64,000 nucleotides of DNA from Patescibacteria group bacterium (GCA_019745315.1 JAIETH010000002.1:32654-96653), one strand, 5' to 3'. Counted from the stretch's first letter, positions 342 through 58,019 are shown. The notes: generated from the sequence alone by a model not told the origin. Numbers and translations: made by a program.

Positions 342-517
342 ATCATTACATGATCAGTACAGGTTTCTGATATTTTGATTCGCATAGCTCTCAAAATATC
401 TAGTAACCTTCTCTAACAGTTCACAGAACTATTAGAGCCTTTCGAGTGAGAAAGTGCGGGGCACTTTTGCAAGACTTTCTATGGCAAATTATTCTTTTTA
501 TTTTGTTGTGTACTTTG

Positions 518-590
518 TGCGCGCACTAGGGGTCGAACCTAGGACCTTTCGAGTATCAGTCGAATGCTCTACCAACTGAGCTATGCGCGC
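518..590 (-). tRNA. tRNA-Ile, anticodon GAU.
   Basis: The reverse complement folds as a canonical 73-nt cloverleaf: GCGCGCA acceptor, GCUC/GAGC D-arm, UUCGA/UCGAA anticodon stem with loop CUGAUAC giving anticodon GAU, and T-arm CUAGG-UUCGACC-CCUAG. CCA is not encoded. Confidence 0.85.
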
Positions 591-1926: not shown

Positions 1927-3385
1927 ATTGGAATTAATCCACGACCAGCTTCCGCTAGCCGTGCCTTGTTACGACTTAGTCCCTGTCATCGAGTTTACCG
2001 TAAGCCTACACGAGGTAGGATTTCGGGCACTCCCGACTCCCTTGACTTGACGGGCGGTGAGTACAAGGCTCGGGAACGTATTCACCCCGGCGTTGCTGAT
2101 CCGGGATTACTAGCGATTCCGACTTCATGAGGGCGAGTTGCAGCCCTCAATCCGAACTGGGGGTACTTTTATAAGGATTTGCTCCACCTTACGGTATTGC
2201 GTCCTGTTGTGGTACCCATTGTATCACGAGTGCAGCCCAAGGCATCAAGGGACATGCGGACCTGGCGTCATCCTCACCTTCCTCCCCCGTGAGGGGGCAG
2301 TCTCGCCTGACAAATATAACAGGCAACGAGGGTTGCGTTCGTTTCCCCACTTAAGGGAACAACTCAAGCCACGAACTGACGACGGCCATGCATCACCTGC
2401 CATACACCCTCGAAGGCTTCCCCGGTTTCTCGGGGCGTGCAGTATGGTTTCTAGCCTTGGTAAGGTTCCTCGCTTAGCGACGAATTAAGCCTCATGATCC
2501 ACCGCTTGTGCGAGCCCCCGTCTATTCCTTTGAGTTTTAATCTTGCGATCGTACTTCCCAGGCGGCCCGCTTAACGCGTTAGCTTCGCCTCAGAGAGGGT
2601 CGATACTCCCTAAAGCTAGCGGGCAACGTTTAGGGCGTGGACTACCGGGGTATCTAATCCCGTTCGCTACCCACGCTTTCGTGTTTCAGTGTCAGGAATA
2701 CGCCAGTAAAGTGCCTTCGCATTTGGTGTTCCCCATGATATCAACGGATTTCACCCCTACACCATGAGTTCCCTTTACCTCTCGTATCCTCGAGCGTAGC
2801 CGTTTCCTCCGCGATTACCGGGTTAAGCCCGGTGATTTAACGGAAGACTAACTACGCCACCTACACACCCTTTACGCCCAGTAAATCCGGATAATGCTCG
2901 GGGCCTCTGTATTACCGCTCCTGCTGGCACAGAGTTAGGAGCCCCTTATTCATGAGGTAACGTCAAAATTTCCTCCCTCATAAAAGATGTTTACGTCCCT
3001 AAGGACTTCATCCATCACGCGGCGTCGCTCCGTCAGGCTTGCGCCCATTGCGGAAGATTCTCGACTGCAGCCTCCCGTAGGAGTATGGCCCGTGTCGCAG
3101 TGCCATCGGTGGGGGTCAGCCTCTCAGCTCCCCTACGCGTCGTAGCCTTGGTGAGCCATTACCTCACCAACTAGCTGATACGTCGCAGGCTGTTCCCAGA
3201 GCGATAAATCTTTACTCTCTCGAGACCATCACGTATTATCTCGCCTTTCGACGAGTTATTCGTGACTCTGGGGTACATACCTACGTGTTACTACCTCGTC
3301 TGCCATGGGTCTAAACCCATTCGACTTGCATGCCTCATCCACGCCGCCAGCATTCATCCTGAGCTAGGATCAAACTCTAATTTAA
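1927..3385 (-). rRNA. rrs: 16S ribosomal RNA, about 1.46 kb, with no large insertion.
   Basis: On the reverse complement there are universal landmarks: a 5' end ...AGAGTTTGATCCTAGCTCAG at about 3359-3378; a 515F-region variant TTACCGCTCCTGCTGGCAC; a 1492R-region GCCTTGTTACGACTT; and helix 45 with a GGAA tetraloop. The 3' tail reads GGAUUAAUUCCAAU rather than GGAUCACCUCCUUA. Confidence 0.9.
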
Positions 3386-3854
3386 GACGATGGTGCAGCT
3401 TACGCTGCGATCATCGATTTTGTCCAAGGATAAGGCAGAAGAAAATACCTATTATTTTTTCTGCCCTCCTACTTATTTTCTATTGTGTGCTGAATGTATG
3501 TAGGCTCCTGGCTTACATACATTCAATTTCGTGTTGTACATATGAAATTGTATGGAGACCATACAACTCTTGTTCATCAGAATACTAAAAATATACGTGC
3601 ATATGATTAGCACTTTTGACTCCCAAGATCTTTCAAAAAACAATTCCCTGCGCACCCAATCCACTGGTCTTTTTCAAGGCCATTTCGGTATTTGAAGGAA
3701 TGAAAAACGCCTTCAAAAGGCAGTGGAAGCATTATACGGATTTGAGGCGTGCCGTCAAGCAAATGCCCTATGGGGATAGAGGGACGCCTCACCAAGCGGC
3801 CGTATACATAAAAAAGACAAGCATTTCTGCTCGTCTTTGGGGGCTCTCGGGCGA

Positions 3855-4058
3855 CTAGAGGTCAACCCGGAACCGTGGATCGCTGCGCGCATAGAGGTCA
3901 AAAGGATCACCCTTCTCAGGAACCTTCGGCAGCTCCTCCAGAGACAGATCCATGGTCGCCTCGTCTGCTCGAGGTGTTTCTGCCTCGGCCCCCCGCACCT
4001 CTTGTGCGAGCTCGATTTCGAGCGGCGCATTCGCTCGCGGACCCGCAAAACTCGTCAT
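3855..4058 (-). CDS. Hypothetical acidic protein of 67 aa, encoded in a GC-rich patch.
   Basis: The ORF has an AAGGAG Shine-Dalgarno motif 7 nt upstream of its ATG. Local GC is much higher than the flanks. No function was recognised. Confidence 0.3.
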   Translation of the reverse strand: MTSFAGPRANAPLEIELAQEVRGAEAETPRADEATMDLSLEELPKVPEKGDPFDLYARSDPRFRVDL

Positions 4059-4401
4059 AACGGCTCTCCTTATGCCTCGAAGATCACATCCTCGTCGGAA
4101 CGAAAAACATCTTACAGATGCTGTACACCATACCGGGTATTTTGTTTCGGCACTGCCTCACAAAATGCCTGGTATGGTCGATTTTTTTGTTCTAGCATGC
4201 CCCCGGCATACTCGAACAAAAAATCCCCCGCAAGGGGTTCCGCTTCGACGTATGTTTTTGTTTTTAGAAACTTACGCAATCACAGAACCCCTCTCCGGAG
4301 AGAAGTAGCTAAACCATGTAAACACGGTTGTCTGTGATTGCATTCGTTCCATATAAAAAGAATATGTCCTTACCCACATTTGGTCAAGCGCCCTACTGTA
4401 A

Positions 4402-5144
4402 CTATTCTTTTACTATTCGCTCAATAAATTTAGGAATTATTGATGACGCTTCAATAGATGGCTTGGCTATCGATTCGACAGACACACCCTGAGGAAGATA
4501 CCCAGGTGAGTTTTGTAATTTCCATGCAATATCTTTCTGTGTTAATTCAGGATGAAATTGAGTGGTATACACATGATTCCCGTAGCGGAGTGCGCTAAAC
4601 CGACACTGCGCACTCTCTGCAAGTACCACTGCCCCAGGAGGAAGCGCAGAGACACTATCTTTATGCCCATACTGCGCCATAAATATCTCTGGGAGATCTG
4701 AGAAAATAGCGTCGCTTTTTCCTGCATCTGTGAGAGCAACGGGGAATGTCCCTACCTTCTTTTGACTCGCGTCATGCAGAACAGGTACACCAAGAACCTC
4801 AGAGATAATTTGGTGCCCATAGCAAATACCTAAAAGTGGGATATCTTTTTCAAGAATATACAAAATTAAAGGTCGAATGCGCGCAACTATATGAGAAGAA
4901 GTTATGCGCGCTGAGTCATCAACTGACCGACCACCATCAAAGTCAAACTCCCCTGAACCACCCAACATGACAGCATCATATCCCGCGAGCATATGCGGAG
5001 GAGTATTCCATTCCAAACTTTCATTCAAGGACGATATAAAATCAGTGTGCGCCGCAGATCCTATTGCTCGAGTATATTCTCCCTGCTCGGCGTGAAGCAT
5101 TTCCGGTCGCGCACGCGATTGAATAATCAAAATCTTTTTCATAT
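4402..5144 (-). CDS. Class I glutamine amidotransferase-like protein (GATase1 fold).
   Basis: The sequence shows the GICYGHQ nucleophile-elbow cysteine and a downstream HPE. The start was chosen at MKKILIIQ, an internal Met of the listed ORF. Confidence 0.6.
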
Positions 5145-5230
5145 GCAATATCGAAATAGTATCAGGGTTTTGTATAAAATAAAAAAGCCGGCACACAAGG
5201 CACCGACTACTCAACTGAACCTACAGAGGT

Positions 5231-6184
5231 TCAGCCATCAAAAACCAAAGCTCCCACAACGGCATCATTCTGACCGTGAACCAACAGTGATTCCCGCGCC
5301 ATCCACATGCCGCCCATCGGCTCAAACTCGCCGCTTCGCGTGTTCAAACCAAAGAACATCCGATAGATCATGTTGCGCGCCCCGAGAGCATCGCGTCGCG
5401 TCGGCATGATGAGCGGCTGCGCAAATGCCGGACCAGACCGACGAAGACGACTTTCAACCTCCCCTGGCGAAAGGCGCTCATTGCGCTTCACCCCATAGAG
5501 AGGAGCTTCTTTGGCTGCGTCATGGAGATACACGGCAACCATGTTGCATCGAGTGCCCCGCAAGGGACGCAGAACGCACGATCGATCGAGCGGCGGCGAC
5601 ACGTAGCCACCTGCCTGCTCACTCGGATCTGTCAGCCACTCGATGCGACGCCAGAGATTCATCCGCTCTCCGTAATGCTTATCACCCTCGTGCCGCACAG
5701 AGCTGATGGCTCGATGCTCGAGAGGGTGATAGTCACGATCTTCTGGGCGAGAGCGCACCAAGAGCGCGCCCGCATGACGAAATGCCTGCTCGAGAGAAAG
5801 ACCTTCTCCCAATGCCAGCGCATCGTCAGTGATCCTGTGAGGAGAGCTGACCCACCGAAATTCAGGCCACATACCCAGCATCTCGCTGAGCCTGCTTTCG
5901 AATTGTGGCACGAGGACTTTCGCCACCCCAATACCACACGGACGCTCCTCCACCTCAAAGAGATGGAGCTTTTCCTCAGGATCAACCACGCAGTCGAGCC
6001 GAACAATGAGCGAAGGACTGCCGTAGTCTCGACCCACGAGGGTATCACCCTTCGGATAGATACCGCGCCACTCCTTGAGCAGCGCCAGAGCTTGGTCGAT
6101 CGCCCCTGTCGAAAAAACCTCGACATGGTCGGACACGTTGAGCGTCCAACCATTTGGCAAAACTTTCTGTTCGAACGAAGCCAT
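5231..6184 (-). CDS. Hypothetical protein of 317 aa, encoded in a GC-rich island of about 58% GC.
   Basis: Long ORF with a strong AGGAGG Shine-Dalgarno motif 8 nt upstream of its ATG. Its base composition is strikingly different from neighbouring genes. No confident family assignment was possible. Confidence 0.55.
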   Translation of the reverse strand: MASFEQKVLPNGWTLNVSDHVEVFSTGAIDQALALLKEWRGIYPKGDTLVGRDYGSPSLIVRLDCVVDPEEKLHLFEVEERPCGIGVAKVLVPQFESRLSEMLGMWPEFRWVSSPHRITDDALALGEGLSLEQAFRHAGALLVRSRPEDRDYHPLEHRAISSVRHEGDKHYGERMNLWRRIEWLTDPSEQAGGYVSPPLDRSCVLRPLRGTRCNMVAVYLHDAAKEAPLYGVKRNERLSPGEVESRLRRSGPAFAQPLIMPTRRDALGARNMIYRMFFGLNTRSGEFEPMGGMWMARESLLVHGQNDAVVGALVFDG

Positions 6185-6734
6185 TGGCTTTTGCCTCCTA
6201 CATGTGTGACGAACTCAGGAATGTCTCCTAAAAACAAAACGACCCCATGCGGGGCCTTGCTTGTCTCTAGATTCCTGTCGGAACTACGCACTCGCAAGAC
6301 CCCTCTGTTTCCAGAGAAGAATAGCGAGGAGGACGAATCCAATGCGATGTTCCATATTTCTACCTTATCAAACCAAAAGTATGTGTCAAGAAAAATCTTT
6401 ACGTTCCACTGCGCACAAAAAAAAAGACGCATGAGCGTCTCAGGAAAGAACGGATGGCGACGAGTAGGATACACGGAATCGGTGCCAGCCTATCCGCATA
6501 AATAGGAGAGGTGAGCCCCGCAACTTCCACGAAGAGGGCTTTTCTTCCTATGAGGCATAGCCTCATCCGCAGACTATTCAGCACGGCGTGCTATCCGCAC
6601 AGAAGTCATATTTGCGCTTTTCACCAAACCTGGCCGGGAGTGCCCAGCATGCGCAAACCTCGCCGCCACCTCAAATATCATACACGCCCCATACAGATAC
6701 GCAAGAAACGACTCTCTGTGCTACACTATTCCGG

Positions 6735-7424
6735 ATGCATTCTGAAACAGTCATAATCTCAGTCGGCGGTTCTCTTATCGTCCCAGATCAGATCGACACA
6801 GACTTTCTCTCCTCTTTGAAGACTCTTGTTGCCACAGAAATTGCTGCAGGCAAGCATTTTATAATCATCACCGGTGGCGGAAAAACAGCACGGAGATATC
6901 AAGACGCAGCGAGTGGTGTAACGAATCTCTCTTCTGAGGACGTTGACTGGATTGGCATCCACGCAACGCGCCTAAATGGACACCTCCTTCGCACTATTTT
7001 TCGAGACATTGCTCACCCTGTCATGATCACAAATCCTGATGATGTACTTGATATCCCGAAAGATGTTCCTCTGATCATCGCATCAGGATATCGCCCTGGA
7101 TCTTCTACCGACCTACGTGCCATTCAGATAGCCGAGCGACGTGGCGCTACAAAAGTAGTTAATCTTTCAAATATTGACTACGTCTATACTGCAGACCCGC
7201 GCACCAATCCTGATGCACAGAAAATAGAATCTATTTCATGGGCAGATTTTAGAAAACTCATACCGTCGGAATGGGATCCCGGACTCTCTTCCCCATTTGA
7301 TCCTGTTGCCGCCCGCGAAGCTGAGCGACTCGGACTTGAGGTAGCGGTTATAAATGGAGGAAATCTTCAAGAACTCCAGAAATATCTTGAAGGAAATCCT
7401 TTTGTAGGGACAGTTATAAAATAA
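6735..7424 (+). CDS. pyrH: UMP kinase of the archaeal type (amino-acid kinase family).
   Basis: Motifs IISVGGSL, GGGKTARRY and YVYTADPRTNP align with archaeal-type uridylate kinases. The start was chosen at MHSETV, an internal Met of the listed ORF. Confidence 0.7.
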   Translation: MHSETVIISVGGSLIVPDQIDTDFLSSLKTLVATEIAAGKHFIIITGGGKTARRYQDAASGVTNLSSEDVDWIGIHATRLNGHLLRTIFRDIAHPVMITNPDDVLDIPKDVPLIIASGYRPGSSTDLRAIQIAERRGATKVVNLSNIDYVYTADPRTNPDAQKIESISWADFRKLIPSEWDPGLSSPFDPVAAREAERLGLEVAVINGGNLQELQKYLEGNPFVGTVIK

Positions 7425-17839: not shown

Positions 17840-17948
17840 ATCTGGCGGCTACCTACTCTCCCTCTTGCGAAGTACCATCGGCGCTAGAAGGCTTAACTTC
17901 CGTGTTCGGAATGAGAACGGGTGTGACCCTTCCGCCAAACCACCAGAT
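17840..17948 (-). rRNA. rrf: 5S ribosomal RNA, 109 nt.
   Basis: The reverse complement AUCUGGUGGUUUGGCGGAAGGGUCACACCCGUUCUCAUUCCGAACACGGAAGUUAAGCCUUCUAGCGCCGAUGGUACUUCGCAAGAGGGAGAGUAGGUAGCCGCCAGAU aligns to the 5S consensus, including the CCGAAC and GUAC loop E regions and helix I. Confidence 0.85.
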
Positions 17949-18034: not shown

Positions 18035-18293
18035 TTAAATATTTAATCTGTTGGAATTTAATATCAAGTGTAGTATTTTTGCAACTCAAAATCAAAACCT
18101 AAGCAACTCTATGAATGCATAGTATTCCTTGTCTTGAATCCTGAAATCGAAATTTGCATGACGATGTTCAGCATTCCTTACAGGAAATACATTCTATTAG
18201 TACACCTCGGCTCCGCATATTTCTATGCTTCCACCTGGTGCCTATCAACCTGATAATCTCTCAGGGAATTTAATGATTCCTCATCTTAGAACT

Positions 18294-18326
<33 letters not shown>

Positions 18327-18452
18327 ATTCCGAACGTAGCTACAGGGCAATGCCGCTGGCGCGACAGCCCTCAGACCAGAGGTTCGTTCATCCCGGTCCT
18401 CTCGTACTAGGGACAAATTTCCTCAAGAATCGACGCCTGCAGTAGATAGGAG

Positions 18453-18486
<34 letters not shown>

Positions 18487-18561
18487 GCGTAACTTTTTAA
18501 TTGGCGAACAGCCAAACCCTTGGGACCTGCTCCAGCCCCAGGATAAGTTGAGCCGACATCG

Positions 18562-18927
18562 CTGTCATTTTTCCCACATTACTGTGAGGATCGGACTATA
18601 TCTTCATCCATACGTAATTTCGCATGGAGATCGGCGTGTAGTCTCTACGGGATCATGTACCAATATGCTTTCGGAATGAAATTAATCTGAAATTGATACT
18701 GACTTCCCACGGTATTGTCCACCTTCTCATTCTCTCTTACGAGAGCGGCTGATGTGGAGTTCACCGTTATAGCCAATTTGTTTTTGTACGGCATTACTGC
18801 CATAGGCACCCCGATGTATTTCGTTTGTTCTATATGGACTTTCGTCCATACAATCTTCGCTCACTCGGTCATGCAAAAGTAAACTTTTGCGCGACGCTCA
18901 TTCGCTTGATTGTAACTACATAAGTTA
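18562..18927 (-). ncRNA. Group I intron of 366 nt in 23S domain V, inserted after the U equivalent to E. coli U2500. It carries no ORF.
   Basis: Exon continuity GGCACCU|...|CGAUGUCGG. The 5' exon ends in U and the intron ends in G. The core sequences GUAGAGACUACACGCC and AAGAUAUAGUCCGAUCC resemble group I P7/J8-7. Confidence 0.65.
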
Positions 18928-19495
18928 AGGTGCCGAACCGTGCCGTCGCTATGGACGCTTGGGCACGACTAGCCTGTTATCCCCAGGGTAACTTTTATCG
19001 GGTAATCTCCGGCCGCATCTAACGCGTACCATCGGTTCACTATGCTCCGCTTTCGCGTCTGCTTGGCATCTACGCCTTACAGTCAAGCTGGCTTATGCCA
19101 TTACACTATCGGCACGGTTTCCATTCGCGCCTAGCCAACCTTGAGACCCCTCCGTTACTTTTTAGGAGGGTAGCGCCCCACTAAAACTGCCTACCACGCA
19201 CTGTCTCAGCATGATTTTTTCATGCTGGTTAGAAACTGCCCGAGTAAAGAATGGTATTTCACTGACGAGTCCACACTTCCCAAAAGAAATGCTTCAACCT
19301 CTCCCATCTATTCTACGCATCACAAGAACAGCCTCAATACGAAGCTACAGTAAAGCTCCTGGGGTCTTTTCGTCTAACTGCAGGTACCCGGCATCTTCAC
19401 CGGGATTGTATTTTCACCGAGCAAGTCCTTGAGACAGTTCCCCAGTCATTACGCCATTCGTGCACGTCGGAACTTACCCGACAAGGAATTGCGCT

Positions 19496-19722
19496 CTTCT
19501 ATTCCTCAAAGAAGGACTCTGTCTTCGTCCGTCCGCATAGGCGACTAAGGACGCGTGACATCTGGTCTCTTTGTGGTCACGTTTTGACTAAGCGTACATC
19601 TCTGTACGCAAGGTAGCTTTTTGAATGATCATCTACGTATCTCTCATAGATGAATTTGCGTCCATTTACCAATCCATAATCGTTCCAGTCATTCGGTTCA
19701 CTTCATTACTGAAATGAACCGA
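19496..19722 (-). ncRNA. Insertion of 227 nt in 23S domain IV at the L1931-equivalent site. It is a candidate small group I intron or intervening sequence.
   Basis: Helix 69 is intact (AGCGAUAACUAUAAUCGUU). The exon reads CUAAGGU|...|AGCGCAAUUCC. The insert begins with U-exon, ends with G, and contains CCUUAG, which is complementary to the 5' exon. Confidence 0.5.
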
Positions 19723-22106
19723 ACCTTAGAACGATTATAGTTATCGCTGACATTGACCGGGGCTTACATAGCCCAGCAGTACAGATTGCTCCATACCACC
19801 TTCCATGTTTAACCTTCCGGCATTGGTCAGGCGTCACCCCCTATACATCCACTTACGTGTTCGCAGGGAGCTGTGTTTTTGGTAAACAGTTGCCAGGGAA
19901 TCTTTCGCTGCGGCCTCTCACCTTGCGGCGAGGAGGCAGGCCTTATCCCGAAGTTACGGCCGCTTTTTTGCCGAGTTCCTTAAGGACCTCTCACTCGTTC
20001 GCCTTGGTCTACTCGACCTGATCACCTGTGTCGGTTTGCGGTACGGAACCGTTTTGTGTAACGTAGAAGTTTTTCTTGGAAGCGTGCTCCCACAATTGAC
20101 GTGTCCGAAGACACATCTTCAGGTTCAACTCGGATGTGCATTAAAGCAGAAGTGCGGATTTACCTACACCTCACCCTCGAAGCACCAACGAAAATCCAGT
20201 AATTCGTTTGAAGTACAACCCTCCGTCCCTCCATAGAAACAAAACGGTGTTATGGAATATTAACCATATGTCCATCGCCTCCCCCGTTCGGGATCGGCTT
20301 AGGCCCGACTAACCCTTGGCTGATCACCATCGCCAAGGAAACCTTGATCTTTCGGCGGGAGGGGCTCTCACCCTCCTTGCGGTTACTTGTGCCGGCATTC
20401 TCACTTCCATACGCTCCAAGTCGGGTCTCCCCTCCTCTTCATCGCAGAATGGAACGCTCTCCTACCACTTACTCTGTACGAATACAGAGCAAATCCGCAG
20501 TTTCGGTACTATGCTTGAGCCCCGATCATCTTCGGCGCAGAAACTCTCGACGAGTGAGCTGTTACGCTATCTTTAAAGGATGGCTGCTTCTAAGCCAACC
20601 TCCTCGCTGTCAATGAATTTCCACCTCCTCAAGTTGCACTGAGCATAGATTTAGGGACCTTAACTGGCGATCTGGGCTGTTTCCCTTTTGACCAATGGAG
20701 CTTATCCCCCATAGTCTAACTGCCGTGTTTTTAATCCTTGGTATTCGGAGTTTGATAGGTCCCACGAGATTTCTCCCTGTTGGGACCTTCCAGTGCTCTA
20801 CCCCCAAGGGGAACACACGACGCCAACCCAAAAGCTGTTTCGGAGAGAACCAGCTATTACGGAATTCGATTAGCTTTTCACTCCTTACCACAAGTCATCC
20901 GATGGTTTTGTACGGCCAACCGGTTCGGGCCTCCCCTTATCTTTCGATAAGGTTCACCCTGCTCATGGCAAGCTCATCCCGCTTCGGGTCGCATTCTATC
21001 CCTTATAATTTCGCGCTATTAACACTCGCTTTCGCTCTGCCTCCGGGGGTCGTCCCCTTAGACGAAGGAATACAATGCACTCGCCGGCTCATTCTTCAAT
21101 AGGCACGCGGTCACCAGACTTACGTCCAGCTCCCACTCTTTGTAGGCATACGGTTTCAGATCTATTTCACTGTCCTCACCGGACTGTTTTTCACCTTTCC
21201 CTCACGGTACTCGTTCACTATCGGTCTCTTAAAATATTTAGCCTTAGGAGTTAGTGCTCCCAGATTCATTCGAGCTATTCATGTCTCGAACTACTCAGGA
21301 ACGACAACAAGAAAGTAGTATTGATTTCGTATACGGGACTATTACCCACTGGGGTCACGCTTTCCAGCGTGTTCTACTACCAATACTTTTTGTAACTTTC
21401 CTCAACTAAATGAAGTTGCCGCCCTACAACCCCGACTATGTAAACACAATCGGTTTGGGCTGATCCCGTTTCGCTCGCCGCTACTAAGGGAATCGCAAGT
21501 GTCTTCTTCCTGACTATAATGGCTCCGCCAGTTGGCAGAATTTAGCCAGAAAGAAAACACCTTGTATTGCTTTCTTTTCCTCCAGGTACTGAGATGTTTC
21601 ACTTCCCTGGGTATGCAAATGTCTTACGACAAATCTCTATCGTAGATAGAGGGGTTTCCCCATTCGGAGATCCTCGGTTATAACGATTGCTTGGCATCTT
21701 ACCGAGGCTTATCGCAGCCATGCCACGTCCTTCTTCGCTTTTAAGAGCCTAGGCATCCACCGTACGCCCTTCATTCCTGTAAGGAATGCTAGACACCGTT
21801 TAAGGCACTTTCCATTCCATTACATGAATACTAAACACCGCTGTTTAGATTTTGATTTTTGTTGTTGTTCGCATGACACACACTCTGACGAAAAGACCCT
21901 CTTTAAAGACATGTGTGCACCATGCGTCACGTGTATGCAACAAAACATACACGATTGCTCGATACTTCCTACATGATATTAAATTTTCAACGAGCGAGTG
22001 TCCCGTATAAGGACTAAAAAAACCGCTTTGAGCGGAGAGAGAAACCCACAGAGAGTCCAACTTCCGCTTACAGGTTTTTATAGTTACTCATAGACACGTA
22101 GCCGCC

Positions 22107-24949: not shown

Positions 24950-25588
24950 CTATGCCCACAGCCGCCTGATCCCATCGACCGAACGAAAAACACGAACAAT
25001 GGTCGGGAAACTCTGAACCTGCCTCCGAAACCATGCGGGAAACGTATACTCGACCGCGCTTACAATTGTCAGCACGGTCGCGATCCCGAGCATCGTGGCC
25101 GAAGAGATGGAAAGCAACAGGCTCTCTATCGGAAAACCGTAGAGGGTAAGAGCCACCATTTGAGCGGCAGCCTTCCATTTCCCCACAGAACTCGAAGCGA
25201 GTCGTTCACCCTTACGCGCACTCATCCACCGCATGGCGTCCACATAGAATTCACGAAGACCAATGACGCCGAAGCATATGATGTCCACAACCCCCACAGG
25301 CGCGTGCGCCACGAGAAATACGATGAACGAGAGCACGAGAATTTTGTCCGCAATAGGGTCGAGTATCGCCCCTATTTTTGTATGGAGCGCATACTTGCGC
25401 GCAAGATATCCATCCAAAAAGTCAGTGATAGACCCAACAACAAACAGACTGAGCGCTGTCCATTCTCCGAAAAAATCGCTCGAAGCAGCACACCATAGTA
25501 TGGTAGCCGCGCAGAGAAATCGTATTCCCGTGAGAATATTCGGCACATGCCGCACATACCCACGTTTTTGCGAAACATGTATCGACAT
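24950..25588 (-). CDS. pgsA: CDP-alcohol phosphatidyltransferase (PgsA-like).
   Basis: Carries the DG-x2-AR...G-x3-D-x3-D motif (DFLDGYLARKY...GAILDPIADK) and is a multi-TM protein. Confidence 0.7.
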   Translation of the reverse strand: MSIHVSQKRGYVRHVPNILTGIRFLCAATILWCAASSDFFGEWTALSLFVVGSITDFLDGYLARKYALHTKIGAILDPIADKILVLSFIVFLVAHAPVGVVDIICFGVIGLREFYVDAMRWMSARKGERLASSSVGKWKAAAQMVALTLYGFPIESLLLSISSATMLGIATVLTIVSAVEYTFPAWFRRQVQSFPTIVRVFRSVDGIRRLWA

Positions 25589-25892
25589 AGCCCCCTCCTC
25601 ATAGATCCACATCAAGCCTACCTTACGTATACAAAAACGCAATCAACAAGATTTCCACATTGATATCCCCATGTTATCAACATACCCATCAAACCATTTC
25701 TATATGGGTGACATACCTCTCAGATACCAGTCAGATACCAGACACAAAGCTTTTCCAAGCGTATCCCTTTACGACATACCCTTCCGCTACCTGCAAAACG
25801 ACCTCCCTTCAAGGTATGTCGTAAAGGGAGATGCGCAGACTTTTCAACAAACTATCCCTAACCTCTCCACATACTTATCCACATATTTCAAA

Positions 25893-56046: not shown

Positions 56047-56940
56047 ATGAAGCCAATGAAACCCTACACAGAGCGAACTCCTGACGAACAGTACAAAAAT
56101 CTTCTCCGAAGCATTCTCGAAAAAGGCACCCGTGTAGAAAGTCAGCAGGGTCCTGACGCACTCACCTTCATAGGACCAACCCCACTTCATTTCAAATTTG
56201 AAAATGGTTTTCCCATGATCACTGAGCGGAGCGTAAAAGGGTTTTGGAAACAAGCTATTGGAGAAATTTGTGGCTTCATAAACGGAGCTCGAACACTCAC
56301 AGAACTTGAATCATTTGGATGTAATTTCTGGACACCGTGGGGCACTCCCGAAAAATGTGCGAAGCGCGGACTTGAAACAGGAGACCTTGGACCCGGCTCA
56401 TACGGAGCTGCTTTTCATGACTTCCCTACAAGTGAAGGCGTTCCATACAATCAATTTCAAAACATTATCGAGCAAATAAAAGAATTTCCTCATTTGCGCA
56501 CACACTTTATTTCTCCGTGGATTCCACAATATACAATTCGAGGCACTGGTAAACAGCAAAAAGTAGTGGTCTGTCCGTGTCACGGCTGGATTCATATTCG
56601 AATACTCAACAACAAGTTGACGCTCCACATGTTTCAGAGATCAGCCGACGTTCCCGTAGGTGTTCCTTCAAATATGATTCAGTACGCAGCATTAACCATG
56701 ATGATTGCGCAAGCAACAGGATTTGAGGCATACGAATATGTACACAGTTTTTCTGATGCGCATATTTATGTAGACCAAATACCTATGGTTGAAGAATTGA
56801 TTGCACGAGAAACAAAACCGTTCCCTACCGTAACATTAACAAATCCAACAAACGATCTTTTTGCATTCCGCAAAGATGATTTTGAACTTGCCGACTATAC
56901 TGCAGGAGAATCGATGCGAGGAATACCCGTCGCTGTATAA
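56047..56940 (+). CDS. thyA: Thymidylate synthase.
   Basis: ThyA signatures, including the PCH catalytic cysteine region. Confidence 0.85.
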   Translation: MKPMKPYTERTPDEQYKNLLRSILEKGTRVESQQGPDALTFIGPTPLHFKFENGFPMITERSVKGFWKQAIGEICGFINGARTLTELESFGCNFWTPWGTPEKCAKRGLETGDLGPGSYGAAFHDFPTSEGVPYNQFQNIIEQIKEFPHLRTHFISPWIPQYTIRGTGKQQKVVVCPCHGWIHIRILNNKLTLHMFQRSADVPVGVPSNMIQYAALTMMIAQATGFEAYEYVHSFSDAHIYVDQIPMVEELIARETKPFPTVTLTNPTNDLFAFRKDDFELADYTAGESMRGIPVAV

Positions 56941-56944
56941 AAAT

Positions 56945-57397
56945 ATGCCTCACGAATCTAAAGTTGGTCTTAACCACAGAAACGCTCGAACCGAGGAACA
57001 AAAAGCTCTCATGGCAAAGATAGAAGCTGACGGTGTATGTCCTTTTTGTGCAGAGCATTTTAAAAAATATCATCCCAAGCCCATTCTGCGAGAAACTGAC
57101 TATTGGTTTGTTACAACAAATATGAGTCCGTATGAAGGAACGCAGCATCATTTCCTGCTCGTATATAAGCCATTCCACGCAACCCTTCCCGAACAAGTTG
57201 TCAGAGAAGCACAAACAGATCTTTTTGCATCCATTGAATGGATAATGAAAACACACCACATTATGGGAGGATCTTTTTTTATGCGCTTCGGTGATATGAA
57301 ATACACCGGCAGCAGTGTGGAGCATCTTCATGCACACCTCATCGTAGGCGACGTTGATGCGCCAGACCATCAACCTGTAAAAGTACGTCTTGGCTAA
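56945..57397 (+). CDS. HIT-family protein with an N-terminal CPFC motif.
   Basis: Histidine triad HLHAHLI. The start was chosen at MPHESK. Confidence 0.55.
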   Translation: MPHESKVGLNHRNARTEEQKALMAKIEADGVCPFCAEHFKKYHPKPILRETDYWFVTTNMSPYEGTQHHFLLVYKPFHATLPEQVVREAQTDLFASIEWIMKTHHIMGGSFFMRFGDMKYTGSSVEHLHAHLIVGDVDAPDHQPVKVRLG

Positions 57398-57476
57398 ACC
57401 TTAACAGGTTTTTTAAAAGGTTGACTTTTTTTGTTTTTTATTGCACTCTCAATCTTGGATTCAAAAGGAGGACCCG

Positions 57477-58019
57477 ATGCCCGCATGTGACGCCCCCACC
57501 CTGCTCACCCCCGAACAACTGTTCTGCCTCTGCGGATGCCGCAGCTATAAGCAGTACTACGAGATGCGGAAAGGCTTCGAGTCTGGAGCTTGTGCTTTCT
57601 GCCAGATCGACAAGGGGCTCAACCAAGTGCTTTTCGAGAACGATTTTTGGCTGATCTGGGAGGTTCCCTCGCAATTTCTGCGTAAGGAACTTGCCCTCCA
57701 TCTGATGATCGTCCCGAAGCAACACGTTCGGTTCCCTTGGGAACTTCCTGCAGAAGCTACGCGCGCGAAGTACGCGTGCTGGGAGTGGATCGAGGAACAC
57801 TACGCTGACCGGATCGAGGGCGGCATAATTGCTACCCGCATTGGAGACATGCGGCTCAATGCCGGCACGGTGCCGCACATGCACACCAACGTGTATGTGC
57901 CGAAGGGTACCGCTGAATTTCGGATTCCTGTTTTTAAGGATCCGAGTGACGCCGCGGAGAACGCTCTGCGTGCCGCAGAATTTTCGACACGATACGAAGC
58001 AGGTGAAGTGCCCGCCTAA
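57477..58019 (+). CDS. HIT-like paralog of the preceding gene, encoded in a GC-rich cassette of about 57% GC.
   Basis: Shares the CAFC, RIGDM and PHMHTNV pattern with the 56945-57397 product. It has a perfect AGGAGG Shine-Dalgarno motif 5 nt upstream of its ATG and its own downstream terminator. Confidence 0.55.
   Translation: MPACDAPTLLTPEQLFCLCGCRSYKQYYEMRKGFESGACAFCQIDKGLNQVLFENDFWLIWEVPSQFLRKELALHLMIVPKQHVRFPWELPAEATRAKYACWEWIEEHYADRIEGGIIATRIGDMRLNAGTVPHMHTNVYVPKGTAEFRIPVFKDPSDAAENALRAAEFSTRYEAGEVPA

Follow-up and report, generated by a model that had tools for sequence, protein, structure and literature searches.

A putative leader-attenuated cassette of an ATP-grasp ligase and an amidohydrolase in Patescibacteria

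The locus and its features

The DNA analysed here, called the window, is a stretch of 64,000 nucleotides (nt) from a Patescibacteria group bacterium (GCA_019745315.1 JAIETH010000002.1:32654-96653), in which positions are counted from the first letter. Its minus strand carries the gene of a 317-amino-acid (aa) protein, identical to the NCBI entry hypothetical protein K2X96_01985 (Patescibacteria group bacterium), followed by the gene of a class I glutamine amidotransferase (GATase). On balance, we favour the view that the two genes form an attenuator-controlled cassette of an ATP-grasp ligase and an amidohydrolase, which would be induced at low supply of tRNAs charged with hydrophobic or aromatic amino acids. 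The observations behind this view are the fold of the 317-aa protein, the synteny, the leader open reading frames (ORFs), the terminators following them, and the complementarity between each leader ORF and the terminator of its own locus. The leaders and attenuators were absent from an earlier note on this DNA, which was made from the sequence alone; they occur in two paralogous copies that link the ligase operon to a 67-aa ORF (ORF67). The features of the two units, all on the minus strand, are as follows.

6362-6389 (minus): promoter of the ligase operon, read from the sequence; -35 box TTGACA (6389-6384), 16-nt spacer, -10 box TAAGGT (6367-6362)
6284-6355 (minus): leader micro-ORF 1, 23 codons and a stop codon, MEHRIGFVLLAILLWKQRGLASA; in-frame ATG-to-stop ORFs lie at the same place in relatives
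6228-6270 (minus): terminator of attenuator 1 (terminator scan); core GGCCCC-GCAT-GGGGTC at 6256-6241, T-run at 6240-6230, extended stem CTAGAGACAAG/TTTGTTTTTAG
5231-6184 (minus): predicted GspS/YgiC/Cp1B-like (circularly permuted) ATP-grasp carboxylate-amine ligase, 317 aa, ATG start; from predicted fold and motifs
5186-5208 (minus): hairpin and T-run in the gap between the ligase and GATase genes (terminator scan, 9 pairs)
4402-5142 (minus): class I glutamine amidotransferase/peptidase C26-like hydrolase, 246 aa; PF00117 and PF07722
4359-4387 (minus): promoter 2, TTGACC, 17-nt spacer, TATTCT (promoter scan, 9/12 matches)
4272-4352 (minus): leader micro-ORF 2, 26 codons and a stop codon, MERMQSQTTVFTWFSYFSPERGSVIA; match of a leader-peptide hidden Markov model (HMM), E = 0.019
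4216-4245 (minus): terminator of attenuator 2 (terminator scan), GAACCCCTTGCGGGGG and a T-run, core at 4237-4225
3855-4058 (minus): ORF67, a 67-aa acidic orphan downstream of attenuator 2, NCBI K2X96_01975, ATG start
3813-3838 (minus): terminator-like hairpin and T-run, 17 nt past the stop codon of ORF67 (terminator scan, 11 pairs)

Fold, motifs and distribution of the 317-aa protein

The 317-aa protein gave no match in Pfam (E <= 1), NCBIfam or the PDB sequences, and searching these with a profile added nothing useful. A word-indexed search with it recovered only 15 relatives among 5.8 billion clusters, and a profile search with the family gave 421 matches at E <= 1e-3 and 192 at E <= 1e-30 among 1.84 billion representatives. 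The sequence and profile searches were uninformative about the fold, which was assigned from structure comparison only. The AlphaFold2 model had a predicted local distance difference test score of 92 and a predicted template modelling score of 0.90, and its three-domain ATP-grasp fold superposed on GspS, YgiC and glutathione synthetase. The structure comparison scores were as follows.

E. coli glutathionylspermidine synthetase/amidase: 18.3
YgiC: 16.5
3n6x: 16.3
Cp1B: 15.3
Trypanothione synthetase: 14.3
Eukaryotic glutathione and homoglutathione synthetases: 10.7-13.1
Classical ATP-grasp enzymes (LysX, RimK, Ddl): 7.6 or less

The most conserved motif of the family was V-R62-L-D64-C...F-E77-V-E79-E-R-P-x-G-x-G, in which R62, D64, E77 and E79 were kept in 81-93% of 132 members. 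By position and spacing, in a motif comparison rather than a residue-level superposition, these residues match R139, D141, E163 and N165 of Cp1B, a fungal ATP-grasp ligase of E-64 biosynthesis (PDB 9cjn), with the difference that the last residue of the R-x-D...E-x-N motif is E79 in the ligase and not Asn. Alanine substitution of any of the four residues abolishes or strongly reduces the activity of Cp1B (PMC12568646). Further conserved features were K169, a KP-x-Q-G strand, QPF and R275. At the ATP-binding position of KP-x-x-G, Lys was present in 96% of the 132 members, and the window protein has R206 there, followed by P207 and G210.

Comparison with hhalign placed PSLIVRLDCV of the ligase against PSLYSRLDLA of YgiC, so that the R-x-D motifs align; the match of the family profile to the single YgiC and Gss sequences was limited to this short motif. 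A weak profile match to DcsG was also detected, in which the D...E-x-E motif is N-terminal in the ligase and C-terminal in DcsG. This reversed order indicates the circular permutation typical of the GspS branch. As in Gss, YgiC, YjfC and trypanothione synthetase, the Mg/phosphate motif of the ligase precedes the ATP-binding lysines. The ligase differs from Gss and YgiC in that the window protein had no match to PF03738 (GSP_synth) at E <= 1; this model was likewise absent from the 25 commonest of the 34 Pfam families matched by the 132 members, which gave only faint matches to other ATP-grasp models. It is also smaller (317 aa) than YgiC (386 aa) and the approximately 400-aa synthetase part of the 619-aa Gss. 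We therefore describe the 317-aa protein as a predicted carboxylate-amine ligase with a GspS-like ATP-grasp fold, belonging to a sequence family that is new and lies outside Pfam GSP_synth. A protein family without a Pfam or NCBIfam model, comprising about 420 clusters at 50% identity, thus becomes assignable to a fold and a catalytic motif. Cp1B provides a parallel, as it was annotated as a hypothetical protein and has no detectable similarity to characterised ATP-grasp enzymes; it differs in being eukaryotic, 486 aa long and encoded in a cluster for a natural product that also includes an oxygenase and an ANL ligase. A graspetide/microviridin-type system of ribosomally synthesised and modified peptides, with a RimK-type ATP-grasp macrocyclase and a precursor peptide having a conserved core, was not found at the locus.

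Among GTDB species representatives, 39 ligase loci were found, most of them labelled Patescibacteria-type (Saccharibacteria, Paceibacterota, Moraniibacteriota and others); the other labels, as given, were 'Gammaproteobacteria' for five binned assemblies, 'bacterium' for one and 'uncultured bacterium' for one. The family is apparently restricted to Patescibacteria, in which it again differs from Gss and YgiC. The members at loci L030, L032, L037 and L040 are 440-463 aa long and have an additional N-terminal region of about 135-170 aa.

The hydrolase encoded downstream of the ligase

The GATase of the window scored 70.8 bits against PF00117 (cut-off 22.8) and 25.9 bits against PF07722, peptidase C26 (cut-off 20.5), and the Cys-His-Glu motifs GICYGHQ and FHPE were present. 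Among the NCBIfam models, PRK07567 and PRK09065 matched under their cut-offs and no equivalog reached its cut-off. The translation start is likely ATG at 5142, giving 246 aa as in the orthologous sequences, rather than TTG at 5214.

In every context read, a hydrolase gene was located closely 3' of the ligase gene on the same strand, with varying flanking genes, and the gap from the ligase to the next same-strand gene was usually 1-120 nt. The partners were counted in two sets of loci.

42 loci, Pfam scan of the downstream genes: M20 26, GATase1 11, GATase_4 2, ATP-grasp_3 1, none 2
32 metagenome loci, BLASTP: M20 27, GATase1 4, GATase_4 0, ATP-grasp_3 0, none 1

Pooled over the 74 loci, from sets that may have contigs in common, the partner was an ArgE/DapE-type M20 deacylase in 53, a GATase1 in 15 and an EgtC-like hydrolase in two. 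All M20 partners fall into a single group, with 39-56% identity to two M20 partners taken as references, and their best NCBIfam matches were ArgE/DapE-family deacylases, under the curated cut-offs; the GATase_4 partners were closest to EgtC, also under the curated cut-off. LysK, ArgE and DapE among the M20 enzymes, PuuD and the gamma-glutamyl hydrolases among the C26 enzymes, and EgtC each remove an N-acyl or gamma-glutamyl group. As three unrelated hydrolase folds occupy one slot, each with known enzymes that remove such groups, the partner was read as an amidase and not as an ammonia donor; by this analogy it looks more like an amidase for the product class of the ligase. A cassette of a ligase and an amidohydrolase in which three non-homologous hydrolases interchange would narrow the chemistry to the formation and cleavage of an amide.

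The earlier note had placed both ORFs correctly (5231-6184, 317 aa, and 3855-4058, 67 aa, each starting with ATG on the minus strand). It had seen no recognisable family in the larger protein, which holds true at the level of sequence searches, and a class I glutamine amidotransferase directly downstream on the same strand, in agreement with the PF00117 match. It had also proposed examining the structure for an ATP-grasp or ligase fold and the co-occurrence with GATase1 genes; the predicted structure has the ATP-grasp ligase fold, and the pairing with GATase1 is kept in relatives (15 of 74 loci). Of its possible amidoligase/GATase pair, the ligase fold and the conserved pairing stand, while the GATase as a feeder of the ligase is not the preferred reading, given the M20 enzymes in 53 and the EgtC-like hydrolases in two of the 74 loci; what these partners have in common is the hydrolysis of amides and not the supply of ammonia.

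Leader ORFs and predicted attenuators of the two units

The -10 box TAAGGT of the ligase-operon promoter ends 6 nt before the ATG of micro-ORF 1; a stricter promoter scan did not list this promoter (6362-6389). Micro-ORF 1 matched an HMM of seven seed peptides, of which it is itself one, with E = 8e-12, and in the closest relatives the corresponding position holds an in-frame ORF of 22-24 codons, such as MERRSQVVIWMTNLLLKRGLAS or MDQHRSQVIFWMNYLLSKGGLAAR. The minimum free energy (MFE) fold of the leader 1 RNA was far better than those of shuffled sequences (z = -4.3), and the 3' end of micro-ORF 1 can form an alternative, antiterminator pairing with the 5' strand of the terminator, the duplex having -22.5 kcal/mol. 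When stalling was simulated, the terminator was lost with the ribosome at codons 9-13 (LLAIL).

In promoter 2 the distance from the -10 box to the ATG of its micro-ORF is likewise 6 nt. When the whole window was translated in six frames, the leader-peptide HMM matched this micro-ORF best; it is paralogous to micro-ORF 1 and contains a cluster of aromatic residues. GAACCCC of terminator 2 is complementary to GGGGTTC within micro-ORF 2, the leader 2 RNA has the same fold architecture as leader 1 (z = -5.07), and simulated stalling switched the structure at codons 1-16, including FTWFSYF. The presence of this second attenuator copy before ORF67 suggests that ORF67 is co-regulated with the ligase operon, as a separate attenuator-controlled unit.

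Leader 2 is identical in the sister strain L053, the 97-99% identical strain in which the only homologue of ORF67 was found. The ORF67 copies of the two strains differ by five nonsynonymous and three synonymous changes and by a 36-nt in-frame deletion between the direct repeats TTGACCTCTA (window positions 3892-3927, minus strand). ORF67 has about 5% substitutions and the non-coding DNA on its flanks about 1%, which makes it a fast-evolving ORF beside a perfectly conserved leader. The small ORFs behind second attenuators in L003 and L020 were considered as homologues of ORF67 and rejected, as no similarity was detectable; the 63-aa ORF of L003 and the 61-aa ORF of L020 are weakly alike (36% over 50 aa). 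Tandem leaders occur in Saccharimonadales loci. In L003 and L015 a second leader precedes the 63-aa ORF, and in L020 three consecutive units of promoter, micro-ORF and terminator lie within 1.7 kb (2040-3740), the first before three small Gly/Pro/Lys-rich ORFs (54-62 aa), each with a Shine-Dalgarno (SD)-like box, the second before an ORF of about 99 aa and the third before the ligase.

Conservation of the leaders across the family

Among all loci with enough upstream DNA, an ORF followed by a terminator was found in 49 distinct leaders; the distance from stop codon to hairpin was 15-53 nt in 46 of these. The typical leader peptide has a polar N-terminus and then an aromatic/hydrophobic cluster around a near-invariant Trp, as in FYSFNYFYFWF, YFFYFFWF, NWYFYF and SYLWLAFMLF. 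The leader peptides abound in Trp, Phe and Tyr; Trp was present in 41 of 47 peptides, and enrichment was 2.1-fold for Phe and 1.85-fold for Trp; the C-termini were not conserved. The last 11 codons and the stop codon of each leader ORF were complementary to the 5' strand of its own terminator. The duplexes between ORF and own terminator averaged -14.85 kcal/mol; permuted pairs gave -9.13 +/- 0.46 kcal/mol, and a value as low as the observed one did not arise in 2000 permutations. Ribosome-masking MFE simulations were performed for 26 leaders, and in 16 of them a stall in the first half or the middle of the ORF exchanged the terminator for the antiterminator; a ribosome near the stop codon left the terminator formed. 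Within the predicted antitermination window, 25% of the codons were for aromatic residues; outside it the share was 12%.

Substitutions between related leaders numbered 52, 50 and 57 at the three codon positions, and the codon changes were 18 synonymous and 83 nonsynonymous. The lack of 3-base periodicity indicates that the peptide as such is not under selection, as expected of a regulatory leader. An Rfam search in permissive mode of 3300-4500 and 6150-6800 returned no credible family. Apparent RNA covariation in the leader alignment was rejected, being better explained by the conserved reading frame together with the antiterminator pairing.

Judged from these sequence features, the leaders are predicted trpL/pheL-type attenuators. 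They share with trpL, pheL, the pheST leader, leuL and ilvL a short ORF in which putative regulatory codons are clustered, a terminator that lies 15-45 nt past the stop codon and an ORF-proximal segment complementary to the 5' strand of the terminator, and their aromatic runs are comparable to those of pheL. They differ in that the genes controlled are a ligase/hydrolase pair and not an amino-acid biosynthesis or tRNA-synthetase operon, that they are found in Patescibacteria, that the leader ORF seems to begin at or near the 5' end of the transcript, and that the antiterminator segment lies inside the ORF. Leader-peptide attenuators would offer a built-in readout of which amino acids matter, here aromatic or hydrophobic ones. 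As far as our searches show, trp/phe-type attenuation in this role is undescribed in Patescibacteria; the literature search found no paper joining leader-peptide attenuation with the Candidate Phyla Radiation (CPR), and none that treats ATP-grasp enzymes together with amidohydrolases in Patescibacteria.

In 16 of 39 distinct leaders, a TANNNT hexamer ends 6-7 nt before the leader ATG, suggesting leaderless translation, and micro-ORF 1 is probably translated without a 5' untranslated region. Upstream of the ligase gene and ORF67, tAGGAGGcaaaagccaATG contains AGGAGG at 6199-6194 (minus), 9 nt before the ligase ATG, and cataAGGAGagccgttATG contains AAGGAG at 4071-4066 (minus). Most genes of the window have no SD box; a GGAG-type box was found in few, and the ligase gene and ORF67 have strong ones, as do a few more of the GC-rich genes. 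The 3' tail of the 16S rRNA (1927-1945, minus) reads GGAUUAAUUCCAAU where the bacterial consensus is GGAUCACCUCCUUU, which means that the canonical CCUCC anti-SD is absent. The missing anti-SD and the apparently leaderless leader ORFs bear on translation initiation in these organisms.

Proposed mechanism and related systems

In the proposed mechanism, unit 1 would be transcribed from its promoter through a probably leaderless 23-codon leader ORF, the terminator, the ligase gene and the hydrolase gene. A ribosome reaching the end of the leader ORF would cover the segment able to pair with the 5' strand of the terminator, so that the terminator forms. If translation stalls earlier in the ORF, this segment would stay free for the antiterminator, and the genes would be switched on at scarcity of the matching charged tRNAs; the hydrophobic or aromatic stall codons would be those of Leu/Ile for leader 1, of Phe/Trp/Tyr for leader 2 and aromatic ones for most relatives. 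In unit 2 the second attenuator copy would act in the same way before ORF67. From its GspS-type fold, the ligase may activate a carboxylate as an acyl-phosphate and join an amine to it, and the GATase1/C26-type enzyme may cleave an amide of the same metabolite class, for example an N-acyl, gamma-glutamyl or dipeptide bond, making the two a putative synthetase/amidase or 'protect/deprotect' pair. The direction of regulation, the order of the two reactions, the physiological role and the link to the supply of aromatic or hydrophobic amino acids are, like this chemistry, inferred.

Several known systems resemble parts of the cassette. Gss, too, combines synthetase and amidase activities towards one bond, but its CHAP amidase is fused to the synthetase, whereas the ligase family uses a separate and interchangeable hydrolase gene (M20, GATase1 or EgtC-like). 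In the pairs LysX-LysK (with LysW), PuuA-PuuD and EgtA-EgtC, an ATP-dependent amide-forming enzyme is encoded with an M20, a GATase1/C26 or a class II GATase enzyme, respectively, that later removes the acyl or gamma-glutamyl group; LysK, PuuD and EgtC represent the same three hydrolase types as the partners found here. In these pathways, however, other enzymes act between ligation and hydrolysis and LysX needs the carrier LysW, while no such genes are conserved beside the cassette, and their ligases are of different families (RimK-type ATP-grasp, glutamine-synthetase-like and GCS2). The nearest functional precedent is the hmrA/ldmS operon of S. aureus, which encodes an M20D carboxypeptidase and an ATP-grasp L-Asp-L-Met ligase and is controlled by Met/Cys starvation through CodY/CymR or an S-box riboswitch (PMC9486568). 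It is likewise a two-gene operon of an ATP-grasp ligase and an M20 peptidase under amino-acid-limitation control, and differs in its reversed gene order, in its peptidase, which is M20D and not ArgE/DapE-like, and in using a repressor or riboswitch in place of a leader peptide.

A wider interpretation is offered tentatively, as possible rather than probable: the cassette might be a lineage-specific Patescibacteria module induced by starvation for amino acids, composed of an attenuator tuned to Trp/Phe/Tyr/Leu codons, a previously unrecognised GspS-like ligase family and interchangeable deacylases. It would make and then cleave an amide-linked metabolite, perhaps a dipeptide or an aromatic amino acid bearing an N-acyl or gamma-glutamyl group, that serves in capturing or storing scarce amino acids or in exchanging them with the host, and fast-evolving small ORFs like ORF67 would belong to the regulon. 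Patescibacteria (CPR) have minimal metabolism and take amino acids from their hosts; to our knowledge they make no amino acids, and we know of little work on how they sense and respond to amino-acid shortage.

A number of points weigh against the cassette as proposed. The hairpin and T-run at 5186-5208 may be an internal terminator or attenuator, and because it lies between the ligase and GATase genes their co-transcription is not certain. The role of the AGGAGG-type boxes at the ligase gene and ORF67 is uncertain, as the 16S rRNA lacks CCUCC. Leader 1 is rich in Leu and Ile and has just one Phe and one Trp, and in 10 of the 26 leaders the stall simulation never removed the terminator. The window ligase departs from the consensus at three highly conserved positions (W124A, G176N and K206R), so that an altered activity of this copy is possible. 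Joint action of ligase and hydrolase on one bond would be futile cycling, which separation in time or different target bonds would avoid. Induction by starvation is paradoxical for a ligase that consumes an amino acid. The authors of the LdmS study remark on the same paradox for their own enzyme (PMC9486568).

Base composition and alternative explanations

The ligase gene stands out by its composition. On windowed calculation, the GC content of the whole 64 kb was highest in the 600-nt interval 5401-6000 (58.7%), exceeding the rRNA genes. The ligase gene has 57.5% GC and a GC content at third codon positions (GC3) of 0.607, about three standard deviations above the genes of the window, for which the means were 44.8 +/- 3.2% GC and 0.394 +/- 0.067 GC3 (52 called ORFs of at least 120 aa). 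ORF67 has 60.8% GC, and the GATase gene between the two is host-like (43.8% GC, GC3 0.358). The GC-rich DNA forms two patches and not a single island. Thus the GC excess that the earlier note had seen at 3840-6200 persists, and the single island drawn around it does not; the SD boxes AGGAGG and AAGGAG were found where the note had quoted them, and its neighbours without SD boxes agree with the scarcity of GGAG-type boxes and the 16S tail.

One explanation of this composition is that the ligase gene and ORF67 were recently transferred from a GC-richer, SD-using Patescibacteria lineage and that ORF67 is not a real gene, which we consider rather doubtful. The GC3 of the ligase gene, the 16S rRNA without CCUCC, the strong SD-like boxes on other GC-rich genes of the window, and the fast evolution of ORF67 and its lack of homologues beyond the sister strain all agree with it. 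The host-like GATase gene, however, lies between the patches and is yet co-inherited with the ligase across lineages. In a comparison of 34 loci from many lineages, ligase genes were richer in GC3 than the mean of the other genes in 26 (Wilcoxon p = 4e-4) and had the highest GC3 of all genes in 14, with an excess of up to z = 10 (loci L014-L052 and others), while the co-inherited hydrolase genes were poorer than average (p = 3e-5). Since the excess is seen across the ligase family, it points to a family-wide effect and not to one transfer event, and as the nearest ligase homologue outside the source genome is just 51% identical, no donor can be named. ORF67 also has its own attenuator, an SD-like box and a terminator, and the 36-nt deletion keeps its frame. 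The compositional shift asked about in the earlier note is therefore real, and a simple one-off transfer of an island does not account for it; AGGAGG boxes without an anti-SD, together with other GC-rich genes bearing strong SD-like boxes, such as those at 24950-25642 (minus) and 57441-58019 (plus), would fit some transfer history. An overlapping antisense gene (a 327-aa antisense ORF at 5522-6505) was rejected as the cause of the GC excess, as synonymous-codon shuffles yielded antisense ORFs equally long; long antisense ORFs over ligase genes are confined to the GC-rich family members.

It is unlikely that the two proteins form an amidotransferase, in which the GATase would hydrolyse glutamine and hand ammonia to an ATP-grasp enzyme amidating an activated carboxylate, as in CarA/CarB and MurT/GatD. 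Complexes of a ligase and a GATase are well known, the partner in the window is a genuine class I GATase with the Cys, His and Glu motifs, and the EgtC-like partners are formally class II GATases too. Against this, the M20 partner of most loci is a metallo-deacylase, and we know of no such enzyme that delivers glutamine-derived ammonia; the GATase itself scores as a peptidase C26, of the gamma-glutamyl hydrolase type, and the loci examined showed no fusion of ligase and GATase and nothing else to indicate a complex. The reading of the partner as an amidase is preferred on these grounds.

We regard it as quite improbable that the leader is a metabolite riboswitch or a nascent-peptide sensor of the TnaC/SpeFL type instead of a sensor of tRNA charging. 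Both leader RNAs are unusually stable and alike in fold (z = -4.3 and -5.1), a terminator follows each, and a near-invariant Trp in a short leader is reminiscent of TnaC. The ATG-to-stop frame is nevertheless kept across divergent loci and the RNA sequence is not, no Rfam family matched even at a permissive E-value, clusters such as FYSFNYFYFWF resemble pheL-type runs of regulatory codons, and the C-terminal residues important in TnaC-type peptides are not conserved, all of which speak against such a sensor.

Least of all do we expect the micro-ORF to encode a substrate or scaffold peptide whose C-terminus the GspS-like ligase modifies and the hydrolase trims (cf. YgiC, LysW/LysX/LysK and pearlin): it does lie immediately 5' of the ligase in dozens of loci, and LysK is an M20 enzyme of the ArgE/DapE group, but the peptide C-termini are not conserved, codon periodicity is absent with the excess of nonsynonymous changes given above, the 3' part of each ORF co-varies with the terminator of its own locus, and copies occur in tandem and before non-ligase genes, including ORF67. 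Also in its favour, YgiC and YjfC ligate spermidine to peptides, as cited in PMC12568646 and as a RefSeq product name likewise indicates.

Genomic setting of the cassette

On the minus strand, the 317-aa ORF (6184-5231) is followed by the class I GATase (5214/5142-4402), ORF67 (4058-3855) and the 16S rRNA gene, with a strong promoter (3758-3731) between the last two. The rRNA genes of the window are unlinked, with the 16S and 23S genes about 15 kb apart and protein-coding ORFs in between.

1927-3385 (minus): 16S rRNA gene, GC-rich, adjoining the left GC-rich patch
17840-17947 (minus): 5S rRNA gene
18175-21783 (minus): 23S rRNA gene, carrying a group I intron at 18572-18823 (minus)

A tRNA-Ile(GAT) gene is located at 517-590 (minus), about 1.3 kb downstream of the 16S gene. 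On the other side of the cassette, a good terminator-like hairpin, GAGACGC-TCAT-GCGTCTT followed by T9, lies at 6424-6441 (minus), 5' of the ligase promoter; a minus-strand gene that it could terminate is not evident. The spacer at 6445-6735 (290 nt, about 51% GC), extending to the start of pyrH, showed no significant structure (z = -1.25). The pyrH gene itself (6735-7424, plus) encodes a uridine monophosphate kinase that matched the archaeal-type equivalog TIGR02076 with 177.8 bits (curated cut-off 158); against the bacterial-type model it scored 37.8 bits, far under the cut-off of 243.9.

Other GC-rich genes were noticed in the window. The ORF at 24950-25642 (minus) has 51.7% GC and a GC3 of 0.56, resembles a cytidine diphosphate (CDP)-alcohol phosphatidyltransferase, judged by eye from a D-G-x-x-A-R...D-x-x-x-D motif, and has GAGGAGG before an internal ATG at codon 19. 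The adjacent ORFs at 56861-57397 (plus) and 57441-58019 (plus) look by eye, from H-x-H-x-H-type motifs, like HIT-family paralogues; the second is GC-rich (about 56%, GC3 about 0.6) and its neighbour has normal composition.

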